Source: Planctomycetota bacterium
GTDB lineage: Bacteria; Planctomycetota; MHYJ01; JACPRB01
NCBI GenBank assembly: GCA_016190155.1
Contig: JACPRB010000064.1
Coordinates: forward strand, 1-47,822
Length of the DNA stretch: 47,822 nucleotides
Direction of reading: 5' to 3'
Shown here: positions 15,749-47,764 of the stretch, piece by piece
Position numbering within the stretch: the first letter of the stretch is position 1
Layout of the letters: each line of letters opens with the position of its first letter
Program-made: the position numbers and the translations under genes
Notes under the pieces: generated by a model
What the model saw: the letters and a program-made list of their open reading frames with translations, nothing else
What the model was told of the DNA's origin: nothing
Databases searched by the model: none

Positions 15749-18436
<2,688 letters not shown>

Positions 18437-18440
<4 letters not shown>

Positions 18441-29182: not shown

Positions 29183-29617
29183 CTACCGCAGTAGCTCGCC
29201 GCACCAGGCGCGCACTTCCGGGGAGATGAACGTGAAGGCCGCCCAAGCCGTCATGGCGAACGCCAGGAACGCAAGGAAGGCCAAGGCGGACCGATCGGCC
29301 AGCTGGAGCGTCACCGTCAGATAGCCGAAGCCCAGCGCCATCAGCGCGTACATTCCCGCCAGGAAGAGCCGGGCCCACGATCGCCGCAGCAGGAACGCCA
29401 CGCCGAACGTGGCCATCGCGACGGCGCACACAAGATAGAGCAAGGCGAAGTACCGATGGTGGGGTGGAGCCGCCAGCAAGGCGATCGATCCGAAGAAGGC
29501 GAAGATCACGCCGACCACCGCCTGGAGCAAAGCCAGCACCCTGGCGCGTCCGACCGGATCGAGCAGATCCTCAAGCGCCGGCCCGCCGTCCACGCGAGAG
29601 CGCCTGGGGATGAACAT
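29183..29617 (-). CDS. Hypothetical small membrane protein (about 4 TM helices)
   Basis: 144-aa hydrophobic ORF between the acyl-CoA dehydrogenase and GT4 genes on the same strand. No recognisable motif. Confidence 0.5.
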   Translation of the reverse strand: MFIPRRSRVDGGPALEDLLDPVGRARVLALLQAVVGVIFAFFGSIALLAAPPHHRYFALLYLVCAVAMATFGVAFLLRRSWARLFLAGMYALMALGFGYLTVTLQLADRSALAFLAFLAFAMTAWAAFTFISPEVRAWCGELLR

Positions 29618-29638
29618 GCTTCTCCTACGCCGCCCGCC

Positions 29639-31507
29639 TCACTTCGGTTGGCCCTCTTTCGTCCACGTCGGCGTCGTCGTCCCTTCCTCGAGCCATCCGT
29701 ACTTCCCCTCCAGGACCCCGCGGGCCAGCGCGGCCTTGCGCGCGTCGTCGTTGCACCACAGCTCCGCGAAGCGCTGGCGCACCCGCCGGCGCGCCGTGCG
29801 GCAGAACACGTCCGCCAGTTCCTCCGCTCCGCGCCACTCCGGATGACCCTCGTCGCGCATCGCCTTGGCGCGCAGCGCGGCGGCCGTCATCGCGTAGAGA
29901 TCCAGCCCGATATCGACGAGGCGGAAGAGGAAGCCCTGTCGATGCTGCAGCCGCCCGCCGTGAACCATCATGCCGTGAAACGTCGCGCGCGCCAGGCGGC
30001 GGCTGTGGCGCGCGGCGAACCGCACGTGCCGCGCCAGCCGGCCGAACTCCGCGTAGCTCGGCCACCAGCCCCACCCGAGCCATCGCGTGGGATACCAGAT
30101 GGCGTAGAAGCCGAACATCTTCGGCAGCGCCAGGAGCTTCTGCATCGCTCCCTTCTTCGGATCGATGAGCGCCCCCGCGACCTCGAGATGCCGGTCCACG
30201 GCCTCGCGCGCCATGAAGAGGTGCATGATCTCGCTGGAGCCTTCGAAGATGCGGTTGATGCGGAAGTCCCGCATCATGCGCTCCAGCCCGATCGGACGGT
30301 CGCCGCGCTCGGCGAGAGACTGCTCCGTCTCGTAGCCGCGCCCGCCGCGGATCTGCATCGCGTCGTCGATGATCTGCCAGCCGGTGAACGAATTGAACTC
30401 CTTCGCGGCGGCGGCCTCCAAGCGGATGTCGTATCCGCCCCGGCCCGCCAGTCGGCTGCCGAGATCCGCCACCGCCTCCATCGCGAAGAGATGCGACGCC
30501 ATGTCCGCGATGCGCGTCGCGATCGCCTCGTGTCTTCCGACGGGGCGGCCCCACTGCACGCGTTCGTTCGCCCAATCCCGCACGATGCGCAAGGCCACCT
30601 TGGCGATGCCCGCGCAGGAGGCCGGCAGCGCCAGCCGTCCCGTGTTGAGCGTGACGAGGGCGATCTTCAAGCCCTGCCCCTCCTGCCCCATCAGGTTTTC
30701 CTTGGGCACGCGCACGTTCTTGAAGCTCATGAGCGCGTTGGCGATCGCCTTGAGGCCCATGAACCGGCAGCGCTTCTCGACCTTCACGCCGGGCCAGCTC
30801 GTCTCGACGATGAAGGCGCTGAGCTTGCGCGAATCCGGATGGCGGGCGATGACGACGATGAGCTCGGCGAACGTGGCGTTGGTGGCCCAGAGCTTCTCGC
30901 CGTTGAGGAGGTAATCTCCCTCGGGCGTGCGCTCGGCCGTCGTCTCCATGCTGGCGGGATCGCTGCCGACGTTCGGCTCGGTGAGGGCGAACGCGGAGAC
31001 GGCGCCCGCGGCCAGCCGCGGGAGGTACTTCTTCTTCTGCTCGTCCGTGCCGAAGATCTTGAGCGGCTGGGGCGCGCCGATGGACTGGTGCGCCGAGAGG
31101 AGCGCCGTGACGTTGGCGTCGTGGCTGCCGAGGAGCTTCATGACCTTGTCGTATTCGGCTTGCGTGAAGCCGAGGCCGCCGTACTCCTTGGGGATCTTCA
31201 TGCCGAAGGCGCCGAGCCGGCGCAGGCCGTCGACGACCTCTTGAGGATATTCGCCCGTGGCGTCGATCTCGGCCGGTCTCACCGCGGTTTCCAGGAACCG
31301 CTTCATCTTGTCGTAGAATTCGCGGAACTCCGGTCTGTCTTCCATCGGCGGGAAGGGATGGATGAGATCGATGCGATAGGAGCCCAGGAAGAGCTCCTTC
31401 AAGAAGGACGGCGAACGCCATTCCTTTTCGCGGGCCGCCTCCGCAACCTCGATGGCCTCGCGTTCACTCGGCTTTGCCGTCGCGACCGGTTTGTTTTCGG
31501 GGCCCAT
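29639..31507 (-). CDS. Long-form acyl-CoA dehydrogenase family protein
   Basis: In ORF track 29639..32095. ATG 31507 ([13 protein letters not shown]...). ACAD N-, middle and C-terminal signatures ([60 protein letters not shown]) plus a C-terminal extension of about 170 aa. Confidence 0.85.
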
Positions 31508-31551
31508 GCATGCCCTCCGATGCGATGTTCCCCGAATGATAACGCGCCGCG

Positions 31552-33435
31552 TCAATTTTCGAGCGATTTTCTTCGCGCGAGGAGGGCCAGAACGAGGACG
31601 GCCTCCATGCCGAGCAGACCGCACCGTCCGCCGGAGGTTCCTCCCGAATCGCCCGCGGGAGCGGGCGCGGGAGTCGGTCCCGGAGGCGGTGGTGGCGGCA
31701 TCGGCGGGAGCGGCGCGTTCGGCCCGATCTGCGGAGGCGGCGCGCCCGCGGAATCCTTCAGGACCAGCGCGACCACGGAGTACGGCGGAAGGGAATAGGA
31801 GAAGTTCTGCGAGACCGGCACGGACATCGAGGCGATCGAAGCCACCGCGTTTCGCCACGTCGCCGGGTTCTGGACGTCGTAGTCGGGGATCGCGGTGCCG
31901 TTGATCGTCGTCTGGTGCTGGGTGAACGAAGCGGGATTGCTCAGCGACATCGGATTGGCGCTCGTCATCTCGTAGGCGAAGCCGGCGGCGGGCGTGAATC
32001 CGGAGACATCGATGTCGGAGACCGCCGTGTCGCCGGTGAGATTGATCATCATCAGTTTGAGCGAACCCGGCTCGGCCGTATCCTTGCTCGCCCACACCAC
32101 GACTTTCTGCGAGGCGTCGCTGGTCGAGGAGCGCACCATGCGGTCGCCGAAGAACTGCGCGTACAGGAATTCCGTGTAGTAGATGGCCCGGACGTCGAGG
32201 TACCGATTGTCATCGGTGCCGACGAGGCCGCGCGAGTTGCCCAGCCCCGTGCCGCCGTCCTCCAAGCTGTAGTACGTGATCATGTCCAGGCCGTTATAGG
32301 CATAGCGCCCGAGCATGTCGGCCAGCCAGATCGCGGCGATGTGGTTCGAATTGATCGGGTGTTCGTGCATCCACGCGTGGGGGCCGAACTCGGTGATCGC
32401 GGTTTCGAAGACGGGATACGTGGGCCTGAGGTTGGTTCGGATGAAGGACATGATCGCCTCCGCGCACTGGCGGCGGTAGGTGTTCAGATCGGAGCTCATG
32501 TCCGCGGGAACGGTCTCTCCGGGCGCCATGCCGCTGATCGAGACGTTTCCGACGACTTCATTGAAGGCCAGGAGCGCCTCGACGGACCCTCCGTTGTAGG
32601 CCCATCCGGCGGAAGGGTTGCTCGTCCATTCCGTCAGCGGATAGGAGTGCCAGGAAAGGGCGTCGACGGATTGGCCGAGCTGCGCCACGCGATCGAACAC
32701 GGGCTTGAACCAATCCTGCGCGCGATAGGGTTGATGCGGCACCGGCCCCATCACCTTGATCCTGGAGTCGACTTGGCGCATGGACGTCCGGTAGGAGGCG
32801 AACCGATTGCCGTACTCCCGAGGTCCTTGGTCGTAGGGCACTCCGAGATTCTCCGGGACGCTCACCGCTCCGGGCGGCAGTTCCAGTTCATTGCCGAGTT
32901 CCCAGTACTTGAAGGCGTAGTTGTGGTCCTGATTGCAGTAGCGCACGAGATCCGTCCACATGGCGGGGTTGTTGTCGGAGATGTTGCACTGCATCATGGT
33001 CTCCGCGCCCACGTCGGCCGCGAAGGCGGCGTAGCTGTCGATCATCGCGGGTTTGTAGGCGTGGGTGTACTGCTTGCCCGACGCGGGGTCGGTCCATGGG
33101 CCGTCGTCCGGGGCGATGTCGTTCCGATCCCACCCGACGCGGTTGGCCCAGAGGCCGCCCGCGAAGCGAATGATTCCCGGCTTGATGTACTGGGTGAGCT
33201 CGATGAGCGCGTGGCGTTTGGGCGCATTAGGATCGATGAACCCGCCCCAGATCCAGTTCCAGTTGTTCATGGCGACGCCGCGCATCTTCGGATTGAAAGA
33301 ATAGACCTCCTGGGCGGCGTTGATCGTGAAACCGACGGGGATGACCGGAACGGCGGCCGAGGATCGGGATCCCGCGGAGAGCGTGATGAGCAGCAGGATG
33401 ACCGCGCCGAGTACGAGACGAGTCTGGATACTCAC
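31552..33435 (-). CDS. Secreted clan GH-A (TIM-barrel) glycoside hydrolase with beta-sandwich domain and Cys-containing C-terminal sorting signal
   Basis: 627 aa. GTG 33435 is preceded by GGGAGG. Signal peptide present. Acid/base motif [10 protein letters not shown] and nucleophile motif TAITEFG. C-terminus has a Pro-rich linker, then [26 protein letters not shown]. Confidence 0.8.
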
Positions 33436-33498
33436 CTAGAACCTCCCTTCGGAATCGCCCCTGGTGATCCCGTAATCGGGAGGCGTTCGTTTTGAAGA

Positions 33499-36180
33499 TT
33501 AGCGCCGAAAGTTTCGATTCCAGACGAGCAAGGTCAGAAGAAGGAAGGTTTCGAGGCCGAGCAGCCCGCAACGCCCGCCCTGGGAGGACGCGCCTGTCGT
33601 GCCGCCTCCGCTGGAACCTCCGCCGTTACCGCCGGGAGGCATCGGCGGCAGCGGGGGATTGGGACCGATCGACGGCGGCGGCGCGGCCGCGGAATCCTTC
33701 AAAACCATCGCTACGGCCGAGTACGGAGGCAAGGAGTAGGTGAACGAGGTCGAAACCGAGACGGACTTCGACGCGATCGACGCGACCGCGCCCCGCCACG
33801 ATGCCGGATTCTCGGCGTCGTAATCCGGAATGACGAATCCGTTGATCGTCGTCTCGTGCTCCGAGAAGGATCTGGGGTTGTCCATGGAGAGCGGGTTGGT
33901 GCTGGTCATCTCGTACGCGTATCCGACGGCAGGCGAGAACCCGGCGATCTCGATGCCGGCCACCGCCACATCCCCCGTCAGATTGACCAGCATCAGCTTG
34001 AGCGATCCCGGCTCCGCCGTATCCGCGCTCGCCCAGACGACGACCTTCTGACTGAGGTCGCTCGTGGAGGATCGGACCAGGCGATCGCCGAAGAACTGCG
34101 CGTACAAGAACTCGGTGTAGTAGATCGGGCGGACGTCGATGAACCGAGGCGCTTCGACGCCGACCAAGCCGCGGGAGTTGCCCCTTCCCGTGGTCCCGTC
34201 CTCCAGCGTGTAATACGTGATCATGTCCAGGCCGTTGTACGCGTACCGCGCGAGCATGTCGGCCAGCCAGACAGCGGCGATGTGGTTGGCGTTGATGGGG
34301 TGCTCGTGCAGTACGGCGTGGGTTCCGAATTCCGTGATCGCGGTTTCGAAGGTGGGGTGCGACGGACGCACGACGTTCTTGATGAAACCCAGCGTCGCTT
34401 CGGCGCACTGGCGCCGATAGGTGTTCAGTCCGACGTCGAGGTCCGGCGGCACCGATTGACCGGGATCGACGTTGCCCATTCCGGAGACGCCGATGGTCGT
34501 CGTGCCGACCACTTCGTTGAGAGCGAAGAGCGCCTCCACGGAGCCGCCGTTGTACGGCCATCCCGAGGCGGGATCCGAGGACCACTCGGTGAGCTGGTAT
34601 GTATGCCACGAGAGGGCGTCGACCGATTGGCCGAGCTCCGCAACGCGATCGAAGACCGGTTTGAACCAGTCCTGGGCGCGATAGGGCGCGTGAACGACGG
34701 GGCCCATGATCTTGATGGTGGGGTCGATCTGTCGCATGGCCGGGCGGTAGGCCGCGAAGCGATTTCCGTATTCCCGAGGACCTTCGGCGTAACTCACGCC
34801 GAGATTCGCCCGGACGTTCTCCTCGCCCGGGACCAATTCGAGCTCGTTGCCGAGTTCCCAGTACTTGAAGTTGTAGGCGTGCTCGACGTTGCAATAGCGG
34901 ACCATGTCGGCCCACATGGCGGGGTTGTTGTCGGAGATGTTGCACTGGAGGATCGTCTCCGCCCCGACGGCGGCGGCGAACGCCGCATAGCTGTCGATCA
35001 TCGCGGGCTTGTAGGCGTGCCGGTAGTTGTACGGCTGTCCGGTCGCGGGGTCGGTGGTCGTCCAGTTCCCGTCGTCGGGAGCGATGTTTGTGCGATCCCA
35101 CCCGACGCCGTTGGCCCATAGTCCCCCGGCGAAGCGGATGACGCCGGGTTTGATGTAGCGGGCGAGCTCGATGAGGGCTTGCCGTTTGGGGGCGCTGGGG
35201 TCCGCGATGCCCGCCCAGATCCAGCTCCAGTTGCTCGTGGCCACGCCGCGCATCTTCGAGCTGAAGGGGTAAACGTCCTGGGCGGCGTCGACGCTGAGGG
35301 TGGCCGAACGCAGAGTCGCCGTGAAGGAGGCCGTCGAGCCGGCCGAGATGACGTTGCCGGATCCGTCGCTGACGCCGCTGACGCTCACCGTGTAGGACCT
35401 GCCGTCGACGAAGTCCGTCGCCAGCGCAAGGTCCACGCGAGAACCGTTCGGGAGCAGCGTGGCCGAGGACAGGGGGTGCATTCCCTGGCTGGAGGAGATC
35501 GCGTAATGGGCGATCGTGCCGGCGGATGCGGCGTCGAGCGTCTCGCTGAAAGTCAGCCTCACGACGTTCAGTCCGACGGGTTCGGCCGACACGAGTTGAG
35601 GCGCGGTCGTGTCCGGCAGCTGCACGAGCCTCACGTTGTCGAAGGCGACGTTGTTGTCGTCGTCGTTGAAGGGCGCGCCGGGTCCTCCGCCCGAGAAGGC
35701 GATTCCCGCGAACTGCTGGTCGAGCACGGAGGATCCGAAGTCCGTGAAGGGGATGACGAAACGGATCCACGATCCGGACGGGATGGAGATGGGGACCTCT
35801 TCGTCGGTTCCCGCCCAGGCGGCGGTCGCGAAGCGGACGCGCACGAGGGCGCCCTCGGGGGAGAGGCTTCTGGCGTAGAAATCGATGTGCGTGTAGTCGG
35901 CCGTGTTGAATCCGGCCGGCCTGTGGATCGCCATGAAGTCGCCGCTGCCGCCGTTGATGGGCAGGTTCTTCTGCAGCGAATGGGTTCCGGCGTAGACCGT
36001 GCCTGTGTGGGAGGGATCGGCGGCGGTGCCCCACGAATTCAGCTCGAAGCCGTTCTGAAGGGCGTCTTCGTAGAGGATCAACGGTGGCGGCGCGACCTGT
36101 GCGGCCGCCGGAAAAGTCGCCAGGAACAGAAGGAGCGTCGGACCCAGCGCCGATCGGACGCGCGAATCTCCATTGGTCAT
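33499..36180 (-). CDS. Secreted clan GH-A glycoside hydrolase paralog with N-terminal CBM-like and Ig-like domains and the same C-terminal sorting signal
   Basis: ORF track 33499..36219. ATG 36180 (MTNGDSRVRSALGPTLLLFLATFPAAAQ) is preceded by GGAGG. An extra ~300 aa (CBM-like jelly-roll and an Ig-like TTAPQLVSAEPVGLNVVRLTFSETL module). The catalytic region is roughly 75-80% identical by eye to the downstream paralog ([17 protein letters not shown]). C-terminus [26 protein letters not shown]. Confidence 0.8.
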   Translation of the reverse strand: MTNGDSRVRSALGPTLLLFLATFPAAAQVAPPPLILYEDALQNGFELNSWGTAADPSHTGTVYAGTHSLQKNLPINGGSGDFMAIHRPAGFNTADYTHIDFYARSLSPEGALVRVRFATAAWAGTDEEVPISIPSGSWIRFVIPFTDFGSSVLDQQFAGIAFSGGGPGAPFNDDDNNVAFDNVRLVQLPDTTAPQLVSAEPVGLNVVRLTFSETLDAASAGTIAHYAISSSQGMHPLSSATLLPNGSRVDLALATDFVDGRSYTVSVSGVSDGSGNVISAGSTASFTATLRSATLSVDAAQDVYPFSSKMRGVATSNWSWIWAGIADPSAPKRQALIELARYIKPGVIRFAGGLWANGVGWDRTNIAPDDGNWTTTDPATGQPYNYRHAYKPAMIDSYAAFAAAVGAETILQCNISDNNPAMWADMVRYCNVEHAYNFKYWELGNELELVPGEENVRANLGVSYAEGPREYGNRFAAYRPAMRQIDPTIKIMGPVVHAPYRAQDWFKPVFDRVAELGQSVDALSWHTYQLTEWSSDPASGWPYNGGSVEALFALNEVVGTTTIGVSGMGNVDPGQSVPPDLDVGLNTYRRQCAEATLGFIKNVVRPSHPTFETAITEFGTHAVLHEHPINANHIAAVWLADMLARYAYNGLDMITYYTLEDGTTGRGNSRGLVGVEAPRFIDVRPIYYTEFLYAQFFGDRLVRSSTSDLSQKVVVWASADTAEPGSLKLMLVNLTGDVAVAGIEIAGFSPAVGYAYEMTSTNPLSMDNPRSFSEHETTINGFVIPDYDAENPASWRGAVASIASKSVSVSTSFTYSLPPYSAVAMVLKDSAAAPPPSIGPNPPLPPMPPGGNGGGSSGGGTTGASSQGGRCGLLGLETFLLLTLLVWNRNFRR

Positions 36181-36268
36181 GATCGCCTCCACCTCGAGAT
36201 CTCGCTCCTGCTTCCGCAATCGCAGGGGGGTGGTCTCACGTTTTCCGAGGGGAGGCGTCTCCGCGGCT

Positions 36269-36766
36269 TCAGGCTCGGCTGATCGCGCGATCGACGGAGA
36301 AGGCCCCGCTGCCTCGGATCATGAGGGCGATCGTCATGGCCAGGGCGAGGAGGTGGTACTCGAAGCCTTCGCCGGGTTGGGTCCCGAACCAGTTCATGAA
36401 GAAGCCGTTGGGGGCGTGCACGAGGCCGATGGCGACCAGCATGATGATCGCGACGGCCAAGGCCGACAGGCGGCCGAGGAAGCCGGCGATGAGTCCGACG
36501 GAGGCCAGGAATTCCGTGATGATTTCCAGGAACGCCAGGACCGCTGGGATGCCGAGTTGTTCCTGGAAGGAGGTCATCGTGGCCGAGAATCCGTATCCGC
36601 CGAACCAACCGAAGGCCTTTTGGGCCGCGTGTGGGAACATGACGCCGCCCAGGACGAGGCGCACGGTGAATGCGGCCCAGTCCGGAGGTGTGGCCAGCAG
36701 TCGCCGCCCTATCGCGGTGATCACCCGCGGCGCGGTGGTCCGGCTGGGCGCGAGTTTCTGGATCAT
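36269..36766 (-). CDS. DoxX family membrane protein
   Basis: 165 aa. ATG 36766 is preceded by AGGAG. DoxX-like helices (RLVLGGVMFPHAAQKAFGWFGG, IITEFLASVGLIAGFLGRLSALAVAIIMLVAI). Confidence 0.8.
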   Translation of the reverse strand: MIQKLAPSRTTAPRVITAIGRRLLATPPDWAAFTVRLVLGGVMFPHAAQKAFGWFGGYGFSATMTSFQEQLGIPAVLAFLEIITEFLASVGLIAGFLGRLSALAVAIIMLVAIGLVHAPNGFFMNWFGTQPGEGFEYHLLALAMTIALMIRGSGAFSVDRAISRA

Positions 36767-36845
36767 GCGGAGCTCCTTTGACCGGGATTATTCACGGCTC
36801 AGGCGAGGTCAAAGAGCCGTCGCCTCTGTTCGTGAATGGACACGC

Positions 36846-37103
36846 TTAGCCTTTGCGACGTCGGGGCGGGAGCGGCACTCCTGCGCGGCGGGCCTTGGAG
36901 AGGCCGATCGCGATGGCCTGTTTGGGGCTGCGCGCTCCGTGCTTGCCTCGGCGCACGTGATGGATCTCCTCGTGAACGAATTCCCCCGCCGCCGTGGAGG
37001 GGCGATATCCTTTGCGGATCTTGTGCGTGGCGGCCTTGGCGACTTCACGCTTCGAGCGTCGACCGACGCGGGCGTGTCCCGAGTGCTTGCGTGGGATAGC
37101 CAT
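36846..37103 (-). CDS. Small basic protein, DUF6496-like
   Basis: In ORF track 36846..37232. ATG 37103 is preceded by a strong AGGAGG. 85 aa with AGEFVHEEIHHVRRGKHGARSPKQAIAIGLSKARRAGV, which I recognise as the conserved core of that family. Confidence 0.7.
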   Translation of the reverse strand: MAIPRKHSGHARVGRRSKREVAKAATHKIRKGYRPSTAAGEFVHEEIHHVRRGKHGARSPKQAIAIGLSKARRAGVPLPPRRRKG

Positions 37104-37177
37104 GATTCCTCCTGGCGTGAATGAGGGGCACACCCTTATGGATCCGGTTGCGAGGGGCGTGTTACTAGGCTGGTGGT

Positions 37178-37726
37178 GTGGGACAGAGGAGGTCACCTCG
37201 TCCTGGAATGGGGTCCCTTTCCAGACTGTCAACCCAACATCCGCCGCTCGCCTGGGACCCGGACCTGGACGAGGTGCCGGTCCGGCCGCTCTCGATGATC
37301 ATGTCCGACCCGTGCTTCGCCGTCTTTCGGGGCCGCCGGCGGCGGTTCGTCACCGGGGCGGCTCCTGCCGGCGTGGGCGGCGACCGGGCGGTCAGGGCCC
37401 GCGACTGGCTGGCCTACCAGAACCGGATGAGCGAGGAGCCGCCGTGGGAGCGCGCTGAACGATACCGCCGGCTCATGGGAGAGAAGGGCTACAAGAGCAT
37501 CCGAGAGCTGGCCAGGGCCATCGCCGAGGATCATTCTCGGATCGCCCGAGTGCTCAAGGTCCTCGACCTGCCGGAGGCAGTCCTGACCGAGCTCCGGAAG
37601 CACTCGACCAACGTCCGCGTCCGAGCCCACTTCACCGAGAAACGGCTCCGGCAGATGGTGATGAAGCAGCGCAGCGAGGCGGCAATCTTGCGCGAGATCC
37701 AAAGAGCCCTCCGGCCCGAAGCCTGA
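37178..37726 (+). CDS. ParB/KorB-like helix-turn-helix protein lacking a recognisable intact N-terminal ParB domain
   Basis: 182-aa ORF. The conserved-looking part starts near ATG 37427 (MSEEPPWERAERYRRLMGEKGYKSIRELARAIAEDHSRIARVLKVLDLPEAVLTEL). The upstream part carries only a weak GGDRAVRA remnant resembling the ParB GERRxRA box. It may be truncated or degenerate. Confidence 0.45.
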   Translation: MGQRRSPRPGMGSLSRLSTQHPPLAWDPDLDEVPVRPLSMIMSDPCFAVFRGRRRRFVTGAAPAGVGGDRAVRARDWLAYQNRMSEEPPWERAERYRRLMGEKGYKSIRELARAIAEDHSRIARVLKVLDLPEAVLTELRKHSTNVRVRAHFTEKRLRQMVMKQRSEAAILREIQRALRPEA

Positions 37727-37743
37727 CGGTCTACCCTCCCCTT

Positions 37744-37983
37744 TCACGGCCCCTCTTTTCCTCCTCCATTGCTGGGCGGCACCCCAGATCCTGGCTTGTC
37801 CGCCCCGGTCTCCACCCGGTTGACCTTGAGCGAGTCTCGATCTTGCCTTTGGACGAAGTTGGCAATCAGTTCGGCGACGCTCTCAACGGCGTCCTGGGTC
37901 TCCTTCGGCGTCAGCGTCATGTAGTGCCGCTTGATTTCCAGCGGCGGCCCCGCCTTCCTACCCTTGATCATTGGCTTTTTCAT
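37744..37983 (-). CDS. Hypothetical small protein, possibly ribbon-helix-helix-like, last ORF of the helicase operon
   Basis: ORF track 37744..37998. ATG 37983 (MKKPMIKGRK...) overlaps the nuclease 3' end by 26 nt. KRHYMTLTPKETQDAVESVAELIANF could form a strand-helix unit. Low-complexity tail. There is no SD, so coding status is uncertain. Confidence 0.3.
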   Translation of the reverse strand: MKKPMIKGRKAGPPLEIKRHYMTLTPKETQDAVESVAELIANFVQRQDRDSLKVNRVETGADKPGSGVPPSNGGGKEGP

Positions 37984-39130
37984 GATATCTACCAGCAATT
38001 CCTAACGATGGCACGTCTGCAACGCGCACAAGAATGGTTCGTGATGTTGGCGTAAGAACACCGTCCGGTCGAACACGAAGGCTAACGAAGCGAACGTGAT
38101 CGCCGACGCCCACGGTCGCGATAGAGCTATGTACGGCCGGGTTCAGCGGGGCGATCTCTGCCCGGCGTGGGCCTTCGCTACCTGCTTGAACATCCACGGT
38201 GATGGCAAGCGCAGCTCCTCCGTGGATTGAGCGTGGCGCCTCAGGAACTGTTCCCTCGACTGCCGCCCCATCCAGATGGCCCGACCAGGCGGGTGACGCC
38301 GCTTGCCAAAATGCCGGGCAGATAAGCTTGTATGGACACCACTTGCAAGCTGCCGGAGAAGGGGCCGCGAACTCTGCCGGCCGAGCCTGTGCGCGGACCT
38401 TCGCGTTGTACGCGTCCAGAAGAGCTATCGCCTCTAGGACCTCCTGCTCACATTCGGCTGGATGGAGGGAGACCTCTACGCCGGTACCAGCGAGCGGGAG
38501 AAGCAGTCCCCGTATGGGCCACGACCCGAGAGCTTCCTTCACGAGATAGCCGTAGATGCGGAGTTGGCGAACGTAGGCACTCTTGACAACCTCCACCTGC
38601 GAATTCTCGTCATACTCAAAGAGTCCGCCGCTTTTGTAGTCCACGACTTCGTCGGCGCGCACAACATCGGGCCTTCCAACGAGCTTGCCGTTGCATGCAA
38701 TGAATTCCTGCTCGCGAATCGTGGCTGAAACGAATGCTCCTGGGCCAGTAGCAGCCACGGGCGCGGCCACAGTGAAGGTAACGAGATCCCCGGCCCGAAG
38801 CCGGACGCTCGCCCGCGCTACATGGTAGCCCGGCCAAGTCACCGGCGATCCGAAGCGGCGATCGAGTGGATGGCGACTGGCCCGCTGGTGTTGTGCTGCG
38901 ATGGCCTGGCTCCAGAGACGCTCGATGGCGTTGTCGAGGGACTCAGTAGCAAGATCAACGCGCGGGATCTTCTCAAGAACCTCGTGGTAGGCGCTTCCAA
39001 GCCAGCCTTTCGGGCTCCCAAGGATGAAAGGGGAGATTCCGGTGGCTCGTGAAAGACCAGCGCGGAGCATGCAAGAGCGCATGACCTCGGCCAGGGTCGG
39101 GCTGGTTGCACGAATCTCGAGCAGCTCCAA
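37958..39130 (-). CDS. Cas4/RecB-family PD-(D/E)xK nuclease with 1+3 Cys (Fe-S-type) cluster and extra C-terminal domain
   Basis: ORF track 37958..39337, numbered here from the track ORF. N-terminal Cys (MRSC, C89). GRPDVV (D224). EVVDYK (E230/D233/K235). QLRIY (Q258..Y262). CKWCPYKLIC (C331, C334, C340), which is the Cas4/AddB-type CX2CX5C. The start is uncertain: TTG 39130 (11 nt after the helicase stop) or ATG 39082. Confidence 0.75.
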   Translation of the reverse strand: MELLEIRATSPTLAEVMRSCMLRAGLSRATGISPFILGSPKGWLGSAYHEVLEKIPRVDLATESLDNAIERLWSQAIAAQHQRASRHPLDRRFGSPVTWPGYHVARASVRLRAGDLVTFTVAAPVAATGPGAFVSATIREQEFIACNGKLVGRPDVVRADEVVDYKSGGLFEYDENSQVEVVKSAYVRQLRIYGYLVKEALGSWPIRGLLLPLAGTGVEVSLHPAECEQEVLEAIALLDAYNAKVRAQARPAEFAAPSPAACKWCPYKLICPAFWQAASPAWSGHLDGAAVEGTVPEAPRSIHGGAALAITVDVQAGSEGPRRAEIAPLNPAVHSSIATVGVGDHVRFVSLRVRPDGVLTPTSRTILVRVADVPSLGIAGRYHEKANDQG

Positions 39131-39141
39131 CTTACCAACGA

Positions 39142-42100
39142 TCAGAACGGCCTCCTCATCACCTCGAAAATTGATTTGAGCGTGACTTGGCAACCGGCTG
39201 CTACTGCTTGGGCATACGCTCCCGCGATCTGAGGTCCGAAGTGGTTCGGGTCGGTGTTCCACAACGGGTGCGTGATGATCTCCACCTGATTCCCGCGGCG
39301 ACCAGCCTGCAGACCCCCATACTGGAGACGCTGCCATCCGGGCATCGCGGCGAAGTAGAAACCGGCGGCGGCCGCGTCAAGTGCCTGCCAGTAGGACACC
39401 GAGAAGTCGACTTGTGCATTCGGGTCCAGCGCTAGTCGAGCCAGATCCAAGCCCAAGCGCCAGTCGAGAATGTTGTGGTACACGAGATTGCTGAAGTCGC
39501 GGAGACAGTCAGGACACGACGTCTGGCAGATGCCGACATGGGCCCCGGCGATGAGGGGTCCGTAAAAAGTGTTGCTTGTCTGACCGACGACGAAGCGCAG
39601 GAGACTCTCGGCCTCGGTCGGAGTCCCGAAATAGGAACTATATCCGGCACCATTCTCCAGACTGTCGGAAATGAAAATCTGACCGACGACTTGCCCATTG
39701 GCGTCCTGCATCACGCGTAGACCGACTTTGAGCTCTCGCTCATGAATGTCCAGACGCACGGCCGCCGCTCTCCGCAGCAGAAAACCCAGAGAGTATAGCG
39801 CGGCTCGGCCTTCAACTCGAAGCGGTACGGCATTGACGCCCACCGGCCAGGTCTGGATTCCAAGAACGAGGACGTCCGTTGGCTTGACTGAGGCGAGAGC
39901 GCGACGGTCAACCGCATTTCCGGGAGCGAGTGGAGGATTGTTGATGCCTATCTTTGTGAGCGCCTCCTGCGTGACCCAAGTCTCGCCCTGGGCGAGCTTC
40001 TCGAAATCGAATTGCCGCCCCTCGTTGTCGTTAATGACGTAGACAGTGTCTTGGCCGCTCCAGATCTCGAAGTTTGCGACGGGTGTCATTGCGATAGGTG
40101 TGACCCCGACTTTTGGGCGCGACGCACGTGCGGTCCACTCGAAGACCCCATCGAAGTCGCGACTCCCCCCAAACCACGTGCGGAACCCTCTGGGCTGCGA
40201 GAGGCGAATCAAGTCGTAGTCGGGGGCAGCCCCACCGCAAACGGGACACGTAGGCGCCGGGTTCTGCGAGCCATCGACCGCTTGGCACCGCCGACACAAT
40301 CCAATGACCAGAGGCGGTCCGAGGGGATTCGGCGCTTGGATGACCGTATTCCCTTGCGGCTGATAGTCGACCACGCCGACCGAAGTATGAATCAGCCCAT
40401 CCTTTACTGTTTCTGAACACGGAGCGAATTGGCTGATTGCGATGTCGAGTTCTCGATCTACGACGCCGTCCGGGGGCCACTCGTACGCCGGGCCTGGCCG
40501 TTCGTGGAATAGAAAACGAACGCGCGTCGGAAAGCCGAACATCGGCAAGATTCCCACATTCGCGAGCCTCTCGCTCAATGACCTCTGTGGAAGCCTCGGA
40601 TCATTCGCCGCATCCGTTACCCGCGAAACGAGCTGGTTCTGGACATAGTTGATGAGTGCGGCTCGCTGTGCATTCAGCTGCTGGCTTGTATGGGAAAGGA
40701 GTACATCGCACGATCGAGCAACAGCAGCAGGGTTATTCTGAATCCATCCATCAACGAGTTGGGCAACTGTCAATCCGGGTGGCGTGCCGGGAGGAGGCTG
40801 GGAAGGCGGTGCGCCCCAGTCTATCGCATCGCCAAACTCGCCGTGGACGTTGTCGCCTCCTTGGGCCACGAATAAGCCGAGTGCGACGAACGCTTGGCGC
40901 AGAACCTCCTTGGCCAGTACGCGCTGGAGGATCGCTTCGCGGCGCATATCGACGTAGGGTTGTGGTGGTGGATCAGAAGTGATCCGATCCGGGCGCTGGA
41001 AGTAGTAGTCATCATGGCTGCGGCCCCGGCATAGGGTCAGCGCGACTGAAAGGCCGGCTCCTCGCCGGCCCGCGCGGCCCACGCGCTGCTGGTAGTTGAA
41101 TCGCATTGGCGGCATGTTAGCCATCATCACCGCGAGCAGTGATCCGATGTCGACACCAGCCTCCATCGTTGTTGTCACGCTGAGGAGGTCGACCGCGTCG
41201 GTGATCATGATCTCGTCAGGCGGCGGCAGGCAGATATCCTGGAAGAGCCGCTGGCGCTTCCTCCCATCGCTCTTGTTCGTCTGCCCCGTGAGCTCCTCAC
41301 AGTTCAGGCGAAAAAGCGAACCCGCCTGGGTAGCGAGGTAGCTGTAGTAATCGGGCGTGAGCTGTGCCGCCGCCACGGGCTGAGGTGGCCCAATGGGAAC
41401 TTGGCATTCCGTGCAGACACCGCCGGACGGATGAAGGTGGACGCGACGGCACTGCCCGCACTCATAGTAGGATGGCCCGGGGCGCATGAGGCAGAGGTTC
41501 TGGACCACTAGGACGTGCTGGGTGAGAGCTACCGCCCCCTGAAGGTAGTTCAGGACGTCCGCAGCGAATGCGGGTGGTACAAGGCCGTGCTGCTGGGCTA
41601 CCGCCGAGAGATACTGCGCTATATAACCTGGTGGATTTGGCTGGCTGGCGGCACCATGGGTCGAAAGCCGCCGCCTTGCACCAAGCAGCCGCATGACGCC
41701 GTCGGCAGCCTCTTGAACGAGTGGACTCGGTGCTGGTATTCCGATTCGGTCCGTCGTTGCGTACGCTATCCGAAGTGACTCAAGGCTGCGCCGCCCAGAG
41801 GCAAAAACGACGTCCATTACTTCGATCAACGACTGGTTTTGAATTCGCAAGAGGTGGTTCTGTTGCGGCTGTGTAAGCTGTGCCGGACCCTTCGCCTGCG
41901 GCGTAGATCCAGGCGATCCCCAGACATACAGGTCACGCCAGCTCCCACTCTTGTTCTGTGGATCTGTCCAGAGCACGTCTTGGATGAAGCCTCCCGGATT
42001 CATTCCGTTGGCGAGGAGGTGTGCCGATGCATCGGCCGCGATCTGGGCAACGTGGAAGGGGCCTTGCGCTGCTCGCGCCATGATGCGCTGGGCTGCCTGC

Positions 42101-44679
42101 TGGCAGTTCAGCCCGGGGTGCGAAGGAGATTGCAGTTGGGCGCTGGCCAGATTCCCAGCCATGGACAACGTAGCCGCTTCTGCCGCATGTGTGCTGCTGA
42201 ATGCAGCCGCGAGAGCCTGTTGCTCTGCTGGCAGCGGCTGCCCTGCGATCTGCGCCGCAAACGCTTGGGCACCCGCGCCCTGCACCGTGATGGCGTAAGT
42301 GATCGCTTGGCGAAGTGCGTCGCGGTAGTGAGAGAAGCGCATGCCCGCCGATAACTTGGCAGCATCCTGCCGACTGTCTGAGAAGACCACAAGTTTGCGC
42401 GACTGAGTAGCTCCCGTACCCACAACTTTGCGGAGAAGTGAATCCGATAGGATTTGGGCGATCTTCTGAAAGCCGGTCCGCAGTGTACGAACGGGAGACC
42501 CAATTTGGCGGCGCGACCAATCCGCATCGCAGCGCGGGCATTTCGCGGGATATGCCTGCCTCGCACTCTCGCCCGCTGGCGGATTCGGGCCATGCATCGA
42601 AGGTACAAAGTAGAGGTAGCCAGGACCTCCGAGCGCTACCCTACCGTCAGCGGGCGTGAACTGGGCGGCCCTCCAGAACCGCTGTACACCATCCTGCGTC
42701 CATTGTGGCGACGCAGGGGTCATTCCTGGACTGGCTGGCCAATAGACAGCATAGCGCGCATAATCGCGATCGAAAGATGCCACGTCTGGCGATGCTTCGA
42801 GATCCGGGTGGTCGGGACTCAGATACCACTCGTTGGGATTCAGGCCAGTGTTGCGCCGGTATCCGCCGAAGAAGATTTCACCGCACGCTTCGCAATAGAG
42901 GAGCTCAAGGACGCGGGAGCCGCAGCCGCAGGTCAGGGTCGGTACGTAGTGAAGGGTGCCCGCAGGACATGCGCCGTTCCGCGGCGGCGCGTGCGAGCAG
43001 CCTGAATTGGTGCAGGCCCAGAGGCCTTGGAGGTTGCGGTAGAAGATGTGCGCGCGCACTGGTAGAGGTGATGTACCATTTGCCCCACGCGCTGCTGAAA
43101 GGCCAGCAAGTAGCCCTTCGAGCGCCTCGATGCCGTCTGCTGGTGCCAGCGCAGGGAACATCGATGCTGCTATCTGCTCGGGAAACCGAGGCTGCAGTTG
43201 GGGGGCGTGTGCAGGTCCGGTGGAACACGCCAATCTTAGCGCTTCTGCCGATGCGATATATCCAAGTGCGGATTCGAGAATTTCCTCGGGGCTGGCGCCC
43301 TGTCCCACTGTGGGGCCTCCAACCGCTGCGCGGAACGCGCTCGCGGCTGGTACTGTGGGAGAAGGCGCCGCGCGAAGATCTTGGCGGAGTTGGCGTAGCG
43401 CGCCCGCGTTTGCACGGACGGCAGCGAACGCGCTTGGGTTGATTGCCTGTGGCATCCCTCCCACAACACGGAACCGATTTCGATCGCGCCCGAAGAACGC
43501 CTCCAGGTACTGGAGACCCTCCGCGCCGCTAGCCACCGACGCGCTGGACGCAATGATACGAAGCTGGTCGGAGTCGGGAGCCAGACCGAGGCGATCGAGC
43601 AGAACCCGGATGAGGTACGCGACCTCAGTTCCAGGCGTTCCTCGATATGTGTGCAGCTCGTCGACGACCAGATGAAATAGGTGGGAGGGGTCCGCCTGGA
43701 GCCACTGTCGCGTCTGGTCAAAGATTGCTGTCTCGACACCGCGCATCAGCATTATGTTAAGCATCGAGTAGTTGGTGATGAGGATGTCCGGCGGGTGATC
43801 TTGCATGTCCCACCGCGACCAGATTTCTCCGCCGTCCATGCTGGGGAAGAAGAAGCGTGTCGCAGGTGGTGATCCGGCGACAAGCTGCGCGTCGCGTTCG
43901 ATACTGGCAAGTTCAGCCCGTAACCTGGTTGTCGCCGCTGCCGTTCTATTCCCCGATACGGGAGTACGCCCAGTGTAGCGCCCGAAATAGAATCGATTTC
44001 CGGATCGCTGGGATTGCAACCACGCACGCGCTTGGGTTCCGTCGAGGCCGCTACGAAGGCGAGCGAGCTGATCCTCGACGAGCGCGTTAAGCGGATAAAG
44101 GATTAGTGCGCGAACAGCCGGAGGTCGCACTGTTGGGTTCTCGTGGGTGCGCTGCGGAATCCGCGGTGTCCAGCGCCTCCGGCTCCCCTGCATCGACCAG
44201 TGATTCCACCAGTCCCATTGTGCCGGCCGGGGACCGGGCGGTCCCCACCCTAGCGATTCGCGAATCAGCGACGCGGCGATTGGCAGCAAGAAGCACTCCG
44301 TCTTTCCCGAACCCGTGCCCGTCGTGACAACGACATCGTGACCACCGGCGGTGGACTCTGCGAAGACTTCCCGTTGGTGTGTGTAGAGCTCGCGTGTGGG
44401 TGGGAACAGCCCCTGCGACACAAAAGTGACCAAGTCTGTGAGTGCAGCAGGTGTCCAAGACGATCCCAGTAGGGACTGGGCTACCTGCTGGAAGGTCTGC
44501 CCACAGGCCTGGTAGGCGGGTACTGGCTCAATCAGCGGACGCCGGTAGAGCCGGCCATCGGTATCGAGCAACTGACGCCGTTCTGCGACGAGGTCGGGAT
44601 ACCGGAGGTCAAACGGGCTGTCAAGGTACCGCAGGTAGGTGTCGCGAAGATCTTCGAAGATCGCAAGGGGATTGCTCAT
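39142..44679 (-). CDS. Giant SF2 DExH-box helicase fused to a DUF1998-like zinc-binding C-terminal module (DruE-like / DrmA+DrmB-like)
   Basis: 1845 aa.
- ATG 44679 forms an ATGA overlap with the upstream gene stop.
- Q-motif and Walker A: LYTHQREVF...[12 protein letters not shown] (K126).
- DELH at aa 340-343, and IIASSAS.
- Motif IV-like [13 protein letters not shown] (aa 763-775).
- Motifs V and VI: [11 protein letters not shown] and [11 protein letters not shown] (aa 1197-1207).
- C-terminal region with CRRC...CPVC (aa 1462-1481), [11 protein letters not shown] and CQTSCPDC (aa 1718-1725), as in MrfA/DrmB-type DUF1998 domains. Confidence 0.85.
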
Positions 44680-45632
44680 CGGAGCTCCTGTCGAAGCAGC
44701 GCGGACGCGAGGCCGGCGATTGCCTGTGGGATCTCAGCGTAGTGAAGGATGCCCGTTTGTGCGACACCTGCTTCATAGGACGGCGGTGACCCCGAGCACA
44801 GAATCAGGGCCCGCTCCACTAGGAATGGCGGCCGACAACTTGAGGGAACAGTGAGGCGGCGATTGATGGCATCGTACCGAAGTACCCGGCGGCGGCACCG
44901 CCTGAGCACGAGATACTTGCCTACCTGGCCAGGTACCTGGAATGCATTGCCCTTCGAGCAGAGCAAAACCTGGCGCTGGTGCCGGAGCGAAAAGCGGAAG
45001 AGACCTCCAGAAGGGGAAAGGGCTTCCTCGCGCGTCGCGGCCTTCCAACCGAGGTCAGAGGTTGAAAAGTGCTCAATTCTCCAGTCGGTGCCGAACGGTA
45101 AAGGGGTCTGCCGGCGCACCGCCGAATCGTCGATCGGCGGGAGGGTCGTCAAGATTGCAGCCGGCGCGTCATGCTGCAGGACGAGGCCGACGCGCTCAGC
45201 AAGAGCGGCGAGCGAGTGAGCATCCCTGGCCACGATACGAATCTGGTCCGGGCAGGATGGAAACGGCAACGTCTCCAGTTCTTCCGTTACGGGTGCCTCG
45301 TGAAGCCGCCGCAGCAACTTGTCCGATCGCGCGCCTGCAAGTATCCCGAGCCATCCACGAGCATGCTGCGTCACAGCCAGGCTCGGAGGTGTCACGCGCC
45401 AATCGCTGCCCCGAGCTCCGGCGAAGAACTCCGCGTGCCCGAGGCGCTGTAGGTTGAGACGCAGTGCCTGGTAGAGCGGAAGAGCGTATTGGTCGGTGGT
45501 GCTATCCTCTTCGGTTTCGTCTTGCTCGCCATCGTTGTCGCCCAAGTGGAGCTCTTCAACGGCGACGCGGAACTGCTGCCATGATCCCTCGCGCCGCGCT
45601 GACATCCAGAGCAGGAGCGAATTGGCGCTCAT
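44676..45632 (-). CDS. Hypothetical protein (318 aa), no recognisable domain, translationally coupled on both sides
   Basis: ORF track 44676..45680. ATG 45632 ([21 protein letters not shown]) forms an ATGA overlap with the upstream stop. Its own stop forms an ATGA overlap with the helicase start. Confidence 0.7.
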
Positions 45633-47764
45633 CGGGGACTTCTCCGGATGGTTCTCGCTTGTCGCTTGTATTCCCGCCACAGCGAGAGCGTGTCAGGGTC
45701 CCCGGGATCGAGTTGAAGTCCTTTTCGACCCGCGTCCAGAATCGCTGCGCACCATGATGAGAGCAGCCTCGACTGCCCCCTGTTCGTCGGGCGCGCGGGT
45801 GACTGAACCGGTAGAAGACCACCGATTCGGAGGACGCGAGCAGTCCGCTTGTCGCATCTGAGGGAATCAACGGGTATCGCCCAGACAGGCTCAAACCACG
45901 GGAACCCTATGCATGTGCGAGTGAGAAGTTCGGTACGAACATCGCATGTGTGGAGCTGCCCTGGCACCGCACCAACAAGGACACAGTTGGAAGCGGGCGC
46001 AACGAAGGGTCGGCTGTCCTTGTGCGCCGTCATGGGAGGGCGAACAACGACGCCGCAGATGGCAGGCCGGGACGTGCCCCCCAAGATGAATTCCCCCATG
46101 GACCAAGTGTACGCGTCCCACGGCTCCCAGGCTTCGGCACCCTCTCGAATCCAGTAAGTCTTGGAGGCGCTCAGGCACCAGATGCTGTGCTTGCCTGGGG
46201 TGTCCCATCCAGGCGCCGCGTACGTTCCGGCAGCGGTCAGCACGGACGACTGTCCATCGATGAGGATGTTGCCCGCAGCGGCCGCGTCGCCGCGCAGGCG
46301 AATTCGCGGAGGATACCCCGCCAGCCAGGTTGCGCGTTCGAGGCGTATGCCGCCCTCCAGGACAAGTTCGACGTTCGCAAGCGGCCTAAGGGCATCGAGA
46401 ATGTCGCCGGTCGGGCTGGGAGGAATCGGCGTTCGTGGAATGACTCCTTTCAACCCGAGCCATCCCTCCGGGATTCCAGCGGCTTGGTCCAGCACTGTCG
46501 GATGGGGACTGCCAGTTGTCGCGATGGCCTCCTTTACCTCAGGAAGGCGGTTCGCAGTACAGAGAACGACATGCTCCTCCCCAAGAAGGAGTCGCGGGAG
46601 GGTGACAAAACCGCTGAGATCGCCGTGACGGCAAAGGACGAAGACCTCGCGCCCGCTCAAAGACCATCGCACGCTCCCCCCATCATCGAGCGTGCCTCCC
46701 CATTCCACTCCGTTCCGCAGCAGAGAGCCGATCGCGGGGAGTGCAACGTCCTGATACCACTCCTCCTGCAGTGCGATGAGCTCGGGTGGACTACCTGATC
46801 CCGAGACAGCGAACTGATTCGGTAGCGCGGCACTCCGGTGGGGCAGCAAGGAAACTCTGCAGAAGCCTCCTTTCTCGAGGGCGAGGCGAACTTCGATTCG
46901 AAGAGCGCGCTCCCGTTCCGTGGGCTCTCCGGTAGTCACGCCGGTCGTGTTAGGTTTGGTCGGAATGGTTGGCGTTCGAGCGATCGGCCGGTACTGTCGG
47001 GGAGTCATGGGGCGCTTTGTCGGAACTTTCTTCCGCTTCTCGACAGCCGGCGACTCAAGCTCAGGATCGGCGGTTGTTTCCTGCTCTGCTTCCAGTGGTG
47101 CCGGAGGAAGAATGCCCTCGACCTCGGTTTCGCGCTCGCTTTCGGTCTCGACGTCAAGATCGTCGGAAGGCAAGTCCTCAACCGACGGATCAGGCGAGCT
47201 CACTATTGGTGTTGATGACGTTTCGGAGGGCGCAGTGCGTGGAGGAGCCTCTGGGAGAGCAACAACCGCTGCCTCGGTCACGGACACCTCGCCACCAGAC
47301 TTTGTGGCGTCCGCCGCTTCATTCAGAGCCTCCTCGATGTTCTGCGTTGATTTGACGGGCGCATCCTGCGGTGCAACCAAGGTCGGCGCGGGAGCTTCGT
47401 TAATTTCGACGTCGCTTGTCCTTCTCTCCAAGTTAGGCGCACCCTCATGAGCCGTACCCGACACCGATTCGAGGTCTTTACGAGTGGGACAACTTTCGCT
47501 CTGTTCGGCGGCATCCTCGGCTCCGGCAATTCCCGCAGATGTAGGTGGTTGGTTATTCTCTGCCGAAGTAGCATCAATTTCTGGAAGCTCTGGCGGCGTC
47601 GCCAACGGAGGTTCAGACGGCAGTATCTGTGCAGGGGCGTCGCCGGCGACAGCGTGGTGTTCCACCGCTTCGCTATATGGTTCAGCCGCACCTTTCCTGT
47701 CCGCCTCACCGACTTCCACTTTGAGCGTCGGCTCGCCAGTCTTAACGCCCTCGCTCGCTTGCAA
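45629..47764 (-). CDS. Hypothetical protein (up to 711 aa): acidic Pro/Ala/Glu/Ser/Thr-rich low-complexity N-terminal ~270 aa plus ~430-aa globular C-terminal region of unknown fold
   Basis: The reading frame is open from TTG 47764. The first in-frame ATG is at 47008 (aa 253, RPMTPRQ). The low-complexity part still shows codon-like G-first periodicity (GAG/GCG/GAA...). The C-terminal part is Trp/Cys-containing and ordered-looking. The start is uncertain. Confidence 0.6.
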   Translation of the reverse strand: MQASEGVKTGEPTLKVEVGEADRKGAAEPYSEAVEHHAVAGDAPAQILPSEPPLATPPELPEIDATSAENNQPPTSAGIAGAEDAAEQSESCPTRKDLESVSGTAHEGAPNLERRTSDVEINEAPAPTLVAPQDAPVKSTQNIEEALNEAADATKSGGEVSVTEAAVVALPEAPPRTAPSETSSTPIVSSPDPSVEDLPSDDLDVETESERETEVEGILPPAPLEAEQETTADPELESPAVEKRKKVPTKRPMTPRQYRPIARTPTIPTKPNTTGVTTGEPTERERALRIEVRLALEKGGFCRVSLLPHRSAALPNQFAVSGSGSPPELIALQEEWYQDVALPAIGSLLRNGVEWGGTLDDGGSVRWSLSGREVFVLCRHGDLSGFVTLPRLLLGEEHVVLCTANRLPEVKEAIATTGSPHPTVLDQAAGIPEGWLGLKGVIPRTPIPPSPTGDILDALRPLANVELVLEGGIRLERATWLAGYPPRIRLRGDAAAAGNILIDGQSSVLTAAGTYAAPGWDTPGKHSIWCLSASKTYWIREGAEAWEPWDAYTWSMGEFILGGTSRPAICGVVVRPPMTAHKDSRPFVAPASNCVLVGAVPGQLHTCDVRTELLTRTCIGFPWFEPVWAIPVDSLRCDKRTARVLRIGGLLPVQSPARPTNRGQSRLLSSWCAAILDAGRKGLQLDPGDPDTLSLWREYKRQARTIRRSPR

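Follow-up and report, generated by a model that had tools for sequence, protein, structure and literature searches.

A probable Druantia type IV DruE helicase whose split motor core follows the architecture of known DruE proteins

DruE, the signature YprA/MrfA-like superfamily 2 (SF2) helicase of Druantia, is known as a motor elaborated by several additional modules. Bell et al. 2025 (PMC12458937) reported such modules for all Druantia types as well as for ARMADA, BRIGADE, and TALON: RecA1 is directly followed by a BrxA-like helical domain, RecA2 opens with a beta-barrel that has at least two CxxC motifs and is interrupted by a MarR-like domain that usually carries a zinc-binding module (ZBM) near its C-terminus, and the OB domain takes up small ZBM inserts, the Cys sites being collectively called 'zinc-binding modules'. 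Cryo-electron microscopy (cryo-EM) of the E. coli type III-A DruE distinguished eleven domains and five ZBMs; the duplex enters through a channel made by a double zinc-binding domain (dZBD) and a DBD, and dimerisation and defence require a DD (10.64898/2026.05.13.724758); the P. aeruginosa type III DruE has 'INS' and 'Stalk' domains within RecA2 together with several Cys-rich zinc motifs (10.64898/2026.05.13.724313), and a study of DruH-E described an FHD, a ZBM_L with two zinc motifs, and a Cap domain, with about 60% of the mass lying outside the MrfA-like core (10.64898/2026.05.12.722862). Type IV is defined by PADLOC as DruE, DruF, and DruL without DruM and DruG (model PDLC00051; Payne et al. 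2021, PMC8565338). Here, we describe a druE gene on contig JACPRB010000064.1 of a Planctomycetota bacterium (assembly GCA_016190155.1), within an analysed stretch of 47,822 nucleotides (nt) that we call the window:

39142..44679, minus strand: druE, DruE4 helicase (YprA/MrfA-like SF2), whole coding sequence, from the open reading frame (ORF) and the PADLOC DruE4 profile

The ORF encodes 1845 amino acids (aa) and is free of internal stops, and the identity of its product can be read directly from profile comparison. The PADLOC DruE4 profile matched at 1763 bits (aa 2-1844 against profile positions 4-1816 of 1829), an end-to-end match that bears out the DruE-type helicase proposed by the initial annotation, which was made from the DNA letters and their translations. 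Two PADLOC DruE2 models also matched at full length (1593 and 1521 bits), and the DruE1 and DruE3 models matched in parts, one DruE3 stretch (aa 187-845) spanning the whole of the first of two large inserts in the helicase core. A profile of 44 diverse family members aligned to PDB chain 9wae_A in one unbroken stretch, positions 3-1804 against residues 18-1953, at 1204 bits; it found 9tu7, a type III-A DruE, at 1e-117, and matched MrfA (6znp) at the RecA motifs only. The overall similarity of 9tu7 is far lower (153 bits, phmmer). A literature search found no paper behind 9wae, deposited as 'Helicase' (1970 aa, seven entries); its N-terminal part, typed through a fragment that was rebuilt from the HMMER alignment and searched against PADLOC, scores best on DruE2, that is, on type II. 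Very probably, then, the gene is druE in its type IV form, and the split core of its product is the normal architecture of DruE.

That architecture is likewise a direct observation. The full set of SF2 motifs—Walker A, DExH, the SAT-like motif III, IV, V, and VI—is present, and all are invariant in homologues. In the druE translation, the Walker A sequence GTGSGKT lies at aa 121-127, DELH at aa 340-343, and SAS at aa 379-381; the motif IV region is found at aa 763-777, with FSDSRQDAA at aa 766-774 (F766, D768, S769, R770, and D772 invariant), and motifs V and VI lie at aa 1169-1179 and 1198-1207. Motif III is followed by motif IV after 381 aa and motif IV by motif V after 393 aa, so that the motif positions and the gaps of about 380 and 390 aa first noted in the initial annotation are exact. 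The split is visible in Pfam too, because the DEAD and Helicase_C families match only partially: DEAD is confined to aa 100-216 (profile positions 2-73) and Helicase_C to aa 1125-1207 (profile positions 40-110 of 110), and the initial 39 Helicase_C positions absent from that match are supplied by the first RecA2 segment. With AlphaFold2 (AF2) models of two segments, aa 1-1200 (mean predicted local distance difference test score, pLDDT, 75.5) and aa 1060-1845 (68.9), the parts of the core and the C-terminal end are placed as follows:

43531..44397, minus strand: RecA1 with motifs I, II, and III, about aa 95-383 (motifs and Pfam DEAD)
42343..42474, minus strand: first RecA2 segment with motif IV, about aa 736-779 (motif and conservation)
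40900..41379, minus strand: second RecA2 segment with motifs V and VI, about aa 1101-1260 (Pfam Helicase_C at aa 1125-1207; matches to 9wae, 9tu7, and MrfA 6znp)
39145..39432, minus strand: predicted C-terminal alpha/beta domain, about aa 1750-1845 (AF2 pLDDT about 90 or higher)

Walker A and DELH are 212 aa apart, about 100 residues more than usual in RecA1, and this surplus, which the initial annotation had not pointed out, resembles the two small RecA1 insertions described in type II (Bell et al., PMC12458937). The region (aa 122-346; 43642..44316) includes a Trp-rich beta-hairpin at about aa 145-185 (WDWWNHW), modelled by AF2 with the hairpin at aa 161-170, and a helix that AF2 puts at aa 247-266. 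For the C-terminal domain, profile and Foldseek searches gave no Pfam or PDB match; an inactivated Vsr-like domain has been predicted at the C-terminal position in types I and II (Bell et al., PMC12458937) and is unconfirmed for this DruE.

The sequence between the core segments resolves into three predicted units, the first two of which together make up insert 1:

43060..43530, minus strand: insert 1a, helical, directly after RecA1, about aa 384-540 (AF2 all-helical, pLDDT 83-95; continuous alignment to 9wae)
42475..43059, minus strand: insert 1b, beta-rich double zinc-binding domain (dZBD, beta-barrel ZBM, or ZBM_L), about aa 541-735 (AF2 strands within aa 541-732; eight invariant Cys)
41482..42342, minus strand: insert 2, helical, inside RecA2, about aa 780-1066 (AF2 helical, pLDDT about 88-94)

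Insert 1a occupies the position taken in other DruE proteins by a BrxA-like, winged-helix (WH), or five-helix domain (PMC12458937; 10.64898/2026.05.12.722862), and insert 1b aligned to residues 414-515 of 9tu7 and also to 9wae. Insert 2, which opens with a predicted 42-residue helix (aa 770-811), sits where other DruE proteins have their MarR-like, DBD+DD, Stalk, or Cap domain. It is the fastest-evolving part of DruE; within the clade its invariant residues include NPGG at 892-897, W914, and E967. The 'MarR-like' label of Bell et al. (PMC12458937) for the RecA2 insert is, for insert 2, neither confirmed nor refuted. Next comes a small ribbon (aa 1063-1101), with predicted beta strands at aa 1070-1074 and 1095-1101, and in the AF2 model of aa 1060-1845 a confident beta-rich OB/CON/MZB module precedes the alpha/beta C-terminal domain. 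The predicted secondary structure thus fits the published DruE domain order. In Foldseek, DrmA was the nearest structure for the core, and for the C-terminal module MrfA 6znp (the best match) and DrmB were nearest; the other matches were generic SF2 helicases.

Could these inserts, and the metal sites that they carry, be unusual lineage-specific additions that set the protein apart from characterised DruE and MrfA-type helicases? The RecA motifs are all that it has in common with MrfA (751 aa) and DrmA, the insert 2 profile has no match outside its own clade, and one Cys site (site A, below) is absent from the type II-like 9wae. We nevertheless regard such an origin as very unlikely, given that the protein aligns over its full length with the profiles of DruE4 and DruE2 and in a single stretch with 9wae, that thousands of homologues have the same inserts, with all putative ligand Cys conserved family-wide, and that the same modules have been published for all Druantia types (PMC12458937) and are visible in the type III cryo-EM structures. 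A whole-protein search returned at least 7197 homologues (E ≤ 1e-10), the closest database protein being 87% identical; the best 120 are 64-87% identical, 110 of them full-length at about 1830-1864 aa, and a diverse set of 95 homologues (31-57% identity) has the same length. A search with the insert region by itself (aa 380-1170) over 1.84 billion cluster representatives (50% identity clusters) matched 2174 of them at E ≤ 1e-3, of which 660 reached E ≤ 1e-30, and in many cases the alignment spans all 791 residues at 31-40% identity.

The initial annotation had held that the inserts go beyond the minimal MrfA/Lhr-type plan, and in this it was right, the modules being absent from MrfA/YprA; what does not stand is its view of them as unusual or unexplained, since they are normal in DruE. 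It had itself named, beforehand, the universality of the inserts and Cys clusters in characterised DruE proteins as what would make them ordinary for the family, and because alignment found exactly this, the claim of unusualness is refuted. The other outcome that it had named, Cys residues not conserved among close homologues, is not what we found, as set out below. As a separate observation, the Pfam family PF27116 ('YjiV_N') is precomputed on all full-length DruE homologues, and local Pfam gave no such match for the window protein; apparently, a curated Pfam family already covers part of the DruE architecture.

DruE contains 31 Cys and seven CxxC motifs, many more than chance would give: in 20,000 shuffles the CxxC count averaged 0.51 and never exceeded 5. 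Conservation of the putative ligands was observed directly: across the 110 close full-length and 95 diverse homologues, 19 of the 31 Cys are conserved, and these are invariant save for C1092, replaced by Asp in a single sequence of the diverse 96 (query counted). By spacing and comparison, the conserved Cys group as 4+4+4+4+3, that is, as four Cys4 sites and a three-Cys MZB site:

42922..43014, minus strand: putative Zn site A, C556, C561, C584, and C586 (invariant in 110/110 and 96/96)
42883..42894, minus strand: putative Zn site B, first half, C596 and C599 (CEAC; invariant; kept in 9wae and 9tu7)
42529..42540, minus strand: putative Zn site B, second half, C714 and C717 (CPRC; invariant; aligns to CPKC of 9wae)
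41404..41460, minus strand: putative Zn site C, ribbon CGQC-x11-CTEC, C1074, C1077, C1089, and C1092 (110/110 and 96/96, C1092 in 95/96; at the C-terminal end of insert 2)
40237..40296, minus strand: putative Zn site D, CRRC...CPVC, C1462, C1465, C1478, and C1481 (invariant; small insert in the OB-fold region, OBZ; AF2 pLDDT 87-93)
39505..39540, minus strand: MZB/DUF1998 metal site E, H1714-x3-C1718-x3-C1722-x2-C1725 (CQTSCPDC, aa 1718-1725, at 39505..39528; its three Cys invariant)

The count of four or five metal sites in the initial annotation therefore agrees with these putative sites, four Cys4 groups and a three-Cys MZB site with His1714 upstream. All the Cys positions that it listed are exact, with one member, C571, conserved in only two of the 96 diverse sequences and so unlikely to be a ligand. 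It had further listed a dense Cys cluster and a CPRC pair in insert 1; the Cys are real, and together they make two Cys4 sets, 556/561/584/586 and 596/599/714/717. This partition follows from 9wae, which loses the first four together (replaced by S, E, Q, and R) and keeps the CEAC and CPKC of site B. In the type III structure 9tu7, site A is present together with the first half (CEAC) of site B, in an alignment that stops at aa 628, short of C714/C717. Site A, invariant in type IV and present in 9tu7, thus appears to have been lost in the 9wae lineage. Sites C and D align with the C..C...C..C of 9wae and with Cys pairs of 9wae, respectively, the latter also aligning, weakly, to Cys pairs of 9tu7. 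The MZB region aligns to 9wae (1e-19) and 9tu7 (2e-7). There, 9tu7 has C-x-C-x3-C-x2-C, whereas this DruE, 9wae, and all 20 aligned clade members have H-x(3-7)-C-x3-C-x2-C in place of the four-Cys pattern; the invariant His1714 is therefore probably the fourth MZB ligand.

We infer that the metal in the DruE sites is zinc. Some or all of the Cys4 clusters might instead hold iron-sulphur (Fe-S) clusters with a part in redox or DNA-charge sensing, as Zn(Cys)4 and Fe-S ligation are indistinguishable from sequence alone and DruK, encoded next to DruE, has a Cas4-like C...C-x2-C-x5-C set. Sets of this type bind 4Fe-4S in Cas4 and AddB. The sites of DruE, by contrast, are CxxC...CxxC knuckle pairs with zinc-ribbon spacing in a modelled beta-hairpin context, and the homologous type III motifs were modelled as zinc in cryo-EM (10.64898/2026.05.13.724758; 10.64898/2026.05.12.722862); the MZB, moreover, is an established Zn site in MrfA according to Roske et al. 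2021, as cited in PMC12458937. With these points, Fe-S ligation in DruE strikes us as highly improbable.

The gene lies in a tightly packed operon on the minus strand, in the order druF-like, druL, druE, and druK, a context that was also observed directly:

45629..47764, minus strand: druF-like, 711-aa ORF with an uncertain true start (PADLOC DruF2 1.1e-10 and DruF4 3.4e-5, weak)
44676..45680, minus strand: druL (DruL4) ORF, 44676..45632 from the likely ATG at 45632 (PADLOC DruL4 2.4e-27)
37958..39337, minus strand: druK ORF, PD-(D/E)XK Cas4-like nuclease, 37958..39130 from the likely TTG start at 39130 (Pfam PDDEXK_1 2e-17; PADLOC DruK 4.3e-27)

The druL stop and the druE start share an ATGA, the likely druL ATG sits right after the druF stop, and the druK ORF, which as called overlaps druE by 196 nt, has its likely TTG start 12 nt past the druE stop. 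DruE, DruF, and DruL thus occur together in the locus, as type IV requires, with weak matches for DruF. The DruF2 profile (1011 positions) is shared between two proteins here, DruL4 covering positions 749-1010 and the 711-aa ORF positions 366-491, and DruF and DruL of type IV therefore look like a split type II DruF, a protein described as an inactivated McrB-like CnuB homologue (Bell et al., PMC12458937). DruK has the motifs RPD ... DYK and the Cas4-like Cys set C89 plus CKWCPYKLIC (C-x2-C-x5-C), which suggests a 4Fe-4S cluster. Three large downstream ORFs (29456..36219) gave no PADLOC match; a Pfam scan of the small ORFs between druK and 36.2 kb found no methyltransferase or defence domain. 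The view of neighbours stops 58 nt upstream of the druF-like ORF, where the window ends.

The surroundings also bear on the question of whether the protein is a housekeeping MrfA/YprA-like DNA-repair helicase rather than a defence protein. Genes flanking the operon to about 36 kb, and the remaining window, are chromosomal housekeeping genes (cytochrome oxidase, alternative complex III, Dus, and a two-component system), and source databases call the homologues merely 'DEAD/DEAH box helicase' or 'YprA'. The best matches, however, are defence-specific DruE profiles, DruL, DruF, and DruK adjoin, homologous loci lie amid restriction-modification, Vsr, HNH, and recombinase genes, and the close homologues are spread patchily over Gammaproteobacteria, Nitrospira, Acidobacteriota, and Chloroflexota, as is typical of horizontally moved defence genes. 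A housekeeping role is accordingly, in our estimation, extremely unlikely. With respiratory genes nearby, the Druantia operon lies in an ordinary chromosomal region.

Two homologous loci that we inspected, L001 and L002, keep the druF-like/druL/druE order, with the druF position filled by a gene of 563-898 aa. Directly upstream of the druF-like gene, L001 (4591..7991) has an MT-A70 methyltransferase gene in the same direction and L002 (2254..8008) has co-directional genes for a C5-methylase and an HhH-GPD glycosylase; in L002, an HNH_2 gene comes after druK. In the window itself, the respiratory cluster (7818..19087, minus strand) comprises COX3, COX2 with a cytochrome c domain, and SCO1/SenC, as well as the alternative complex III genes for ActD, a molybdopterin/4Fe-4S subunit, and a multihaem cytochrome c. 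Between druK and a glycoside-hydrolase-like gene lie several small, partly overlapping ORFs (36269..37747), candidate genes that include those for a DoxX family membrane protein (36269..36766, minus strand) and a DUF6496 protein (36846..37232, minus strand) and one with a weak ParB-HTH match (37178..37726, plus strand).

The functions of the DruE domains and the role of DruK we infer from relatives. As in the type III structures, the motor would translocate 3'-to-5' on single-stranded DNA, with the dZBD of insert 1b and the insert-2 domain flanking RecA2 and providing a platform or entry channel for the duplex in front of the fork. The long helix and helical bundle of insert 2 may serve dimerisation, autoinhibition, or partner contact. 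After RecA2, the chain continues through an extended winged-helix region, an OB fold with its small Zn-binding insert, the MZB (DUF1998), and the C-terminal domain, and OB-Zn and MZB would probably close as a lid on the tracking strand. The Cys4 sites would mainly be structural, holding small domains together, with one or two perhaps touching DNA. DNA cutting in type IV would most likely occur in trans, the adjacent Cas4-like PD-(D/E)XK nuclease DruK being the obvious candidate effector. The proposal in the initial annotation that the inserts are substrate-recognition or partner-docking modules is fair and agrees with the type III DruE structures, whose counterparts of these modules contain zinc, contact duplex DNA, and bring about dimerisation (10.64898/2026.05.13.724758; 10.64898/2026.05.13.724313). 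More speculatively, and with doubts on our part, insert 2 may be a type-specific adaptor that docks the split DruF/DruL pair or DruK, instead of supporting the homodimerisation and duplex binding seen in type III; if so, it would wire one conserved motor to different effector sets across the Druantia types. Equally speculatively, the replacement of Cys by His at the MZB site of types II and IV might tune the allosteric relay.

Several points weigh against the assignment to type IV DruE with its normal architecture, and against what we draw from it. The profile of insert 2 alone found no PDB match, including 9wae and 9tu7 (best E 0.45), and a Pfam scan of 16 insert 2 member sequences found no family; as no sequence similarity was detectable, the equivalence of insert 2 to the DBD/DD, Stalk, and MarR-like domains rests on its position, size, and helical content. 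RecA2 is incomplete in both AF2 segments and came out disordered (pLDDT below 50 at aa 1121-1200 of the first and at residues 60-187 of the second), and the PDB copy used by Foldseek ends at 2026-04-08, before 9wae and 9tu7, so that the fold comparison covers DruE relatives and not DruE itself. The Pfam MZB score of 18.9 bits is under the gathering threshold of 24.2, and the first canonical MZB Cys is missing. As to partners, druK follows druE in L002 and is absent from L001, one of the two loci inspected, and is therefore possibly accessory. Finally, searching the literature for experiments on Druantia type IV or on DruL turned up the PADLOC definition only, and functional statements for type IV are for that reason transferred from type III or from the type II architecture.

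Reading the gene as a type IV druE, the architecture first flagged as peculiar is a published and structurally verified hallmark of DruE, and close relatives of the protein number in the thousands. As a compact and uncluttered case of Druantia type IV (druF-like, druL, druE, and druK), the locus has modest value, and the residue-level map of five putative metal sites and of the domain boundaries offers a guide for mutagenesis and for comparison with type II and type III structures.

Among known systems, the DruE of Druantia type IV (PDLC00051) is alike in profile, operon partners, length (about 1840-1860 aa), and conserved Cys, and we found no substantive difference; relative to the type IV definition, the DruF-like partner fits the DruF models weakly. 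The type II-like 9wae runs in the same order, through RecA1, insert 1, motif IV, insert 2, ribbon, RecA2, OB-Zn, and MZB, and shares with this DruE sites B, C, and D and the His-type MZB motif; it differs in that site A is replaced, insert 2 is dissimilar in sequence, and the protein is about 125 aa longer. Type II systems have DruM, DruG, and an unsplit DruF of about 1010-1030 aa, whereas here DruE4 outscores DruE2 and no DruM or DruG was found among the ORFs scanned. An assignment to Druantia type II was considered and is contradicted by the higher DruE4 score and by the coverage of the DruF2 profile by two proteins.

The type III-A DruE (PDB 9tu7-9tuc) is alike in its WH and double zinc-binding domain before RecA2, in the helical duplex-binding/dimerisation (Stalk) domain in RecA2, and in its OB-Zn and MZB lid and five zinc motifs; sites A and B, site D, and the MZB region align with it. 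Unlike type IV, type III DruE has two C-terminal PLD domains and a DruH partner. Its MZB is built from four Cys (C1681/1683/1687/1690), the first of which is missing here, where a conserved His lies upstream; and two ZBMs are described in its OB with none listed at the end of the RecA2 insert (10.64898/2026.05.13.724758), whereas this DruE has one in each place. MrfA/YprA of Bacillus subtilis (6znp) shares the RecA motifs, the N-terminal region, and the OB-CON-MZB 'canopy', but at 751 aa, against the 1845 aa of DruE, it has neither of the two inserts and none of the additional zinc modules, and 6znp aligns to DruE only at aa 71-135 and about 1164-1242. A minimal MrfA/YprA repair helicase (about 750 aa, NTR-RecA1-RecA2-WH-OB-CON-MZB) was also considered, and is ruled out by the length of 1845 aa and the inserts of 381 and 393 aa. 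DISARM DrmA/DrmB (7s9w), lastly, belongs to the same helicase family, with core and canopy split over two proteins and with other insertions.

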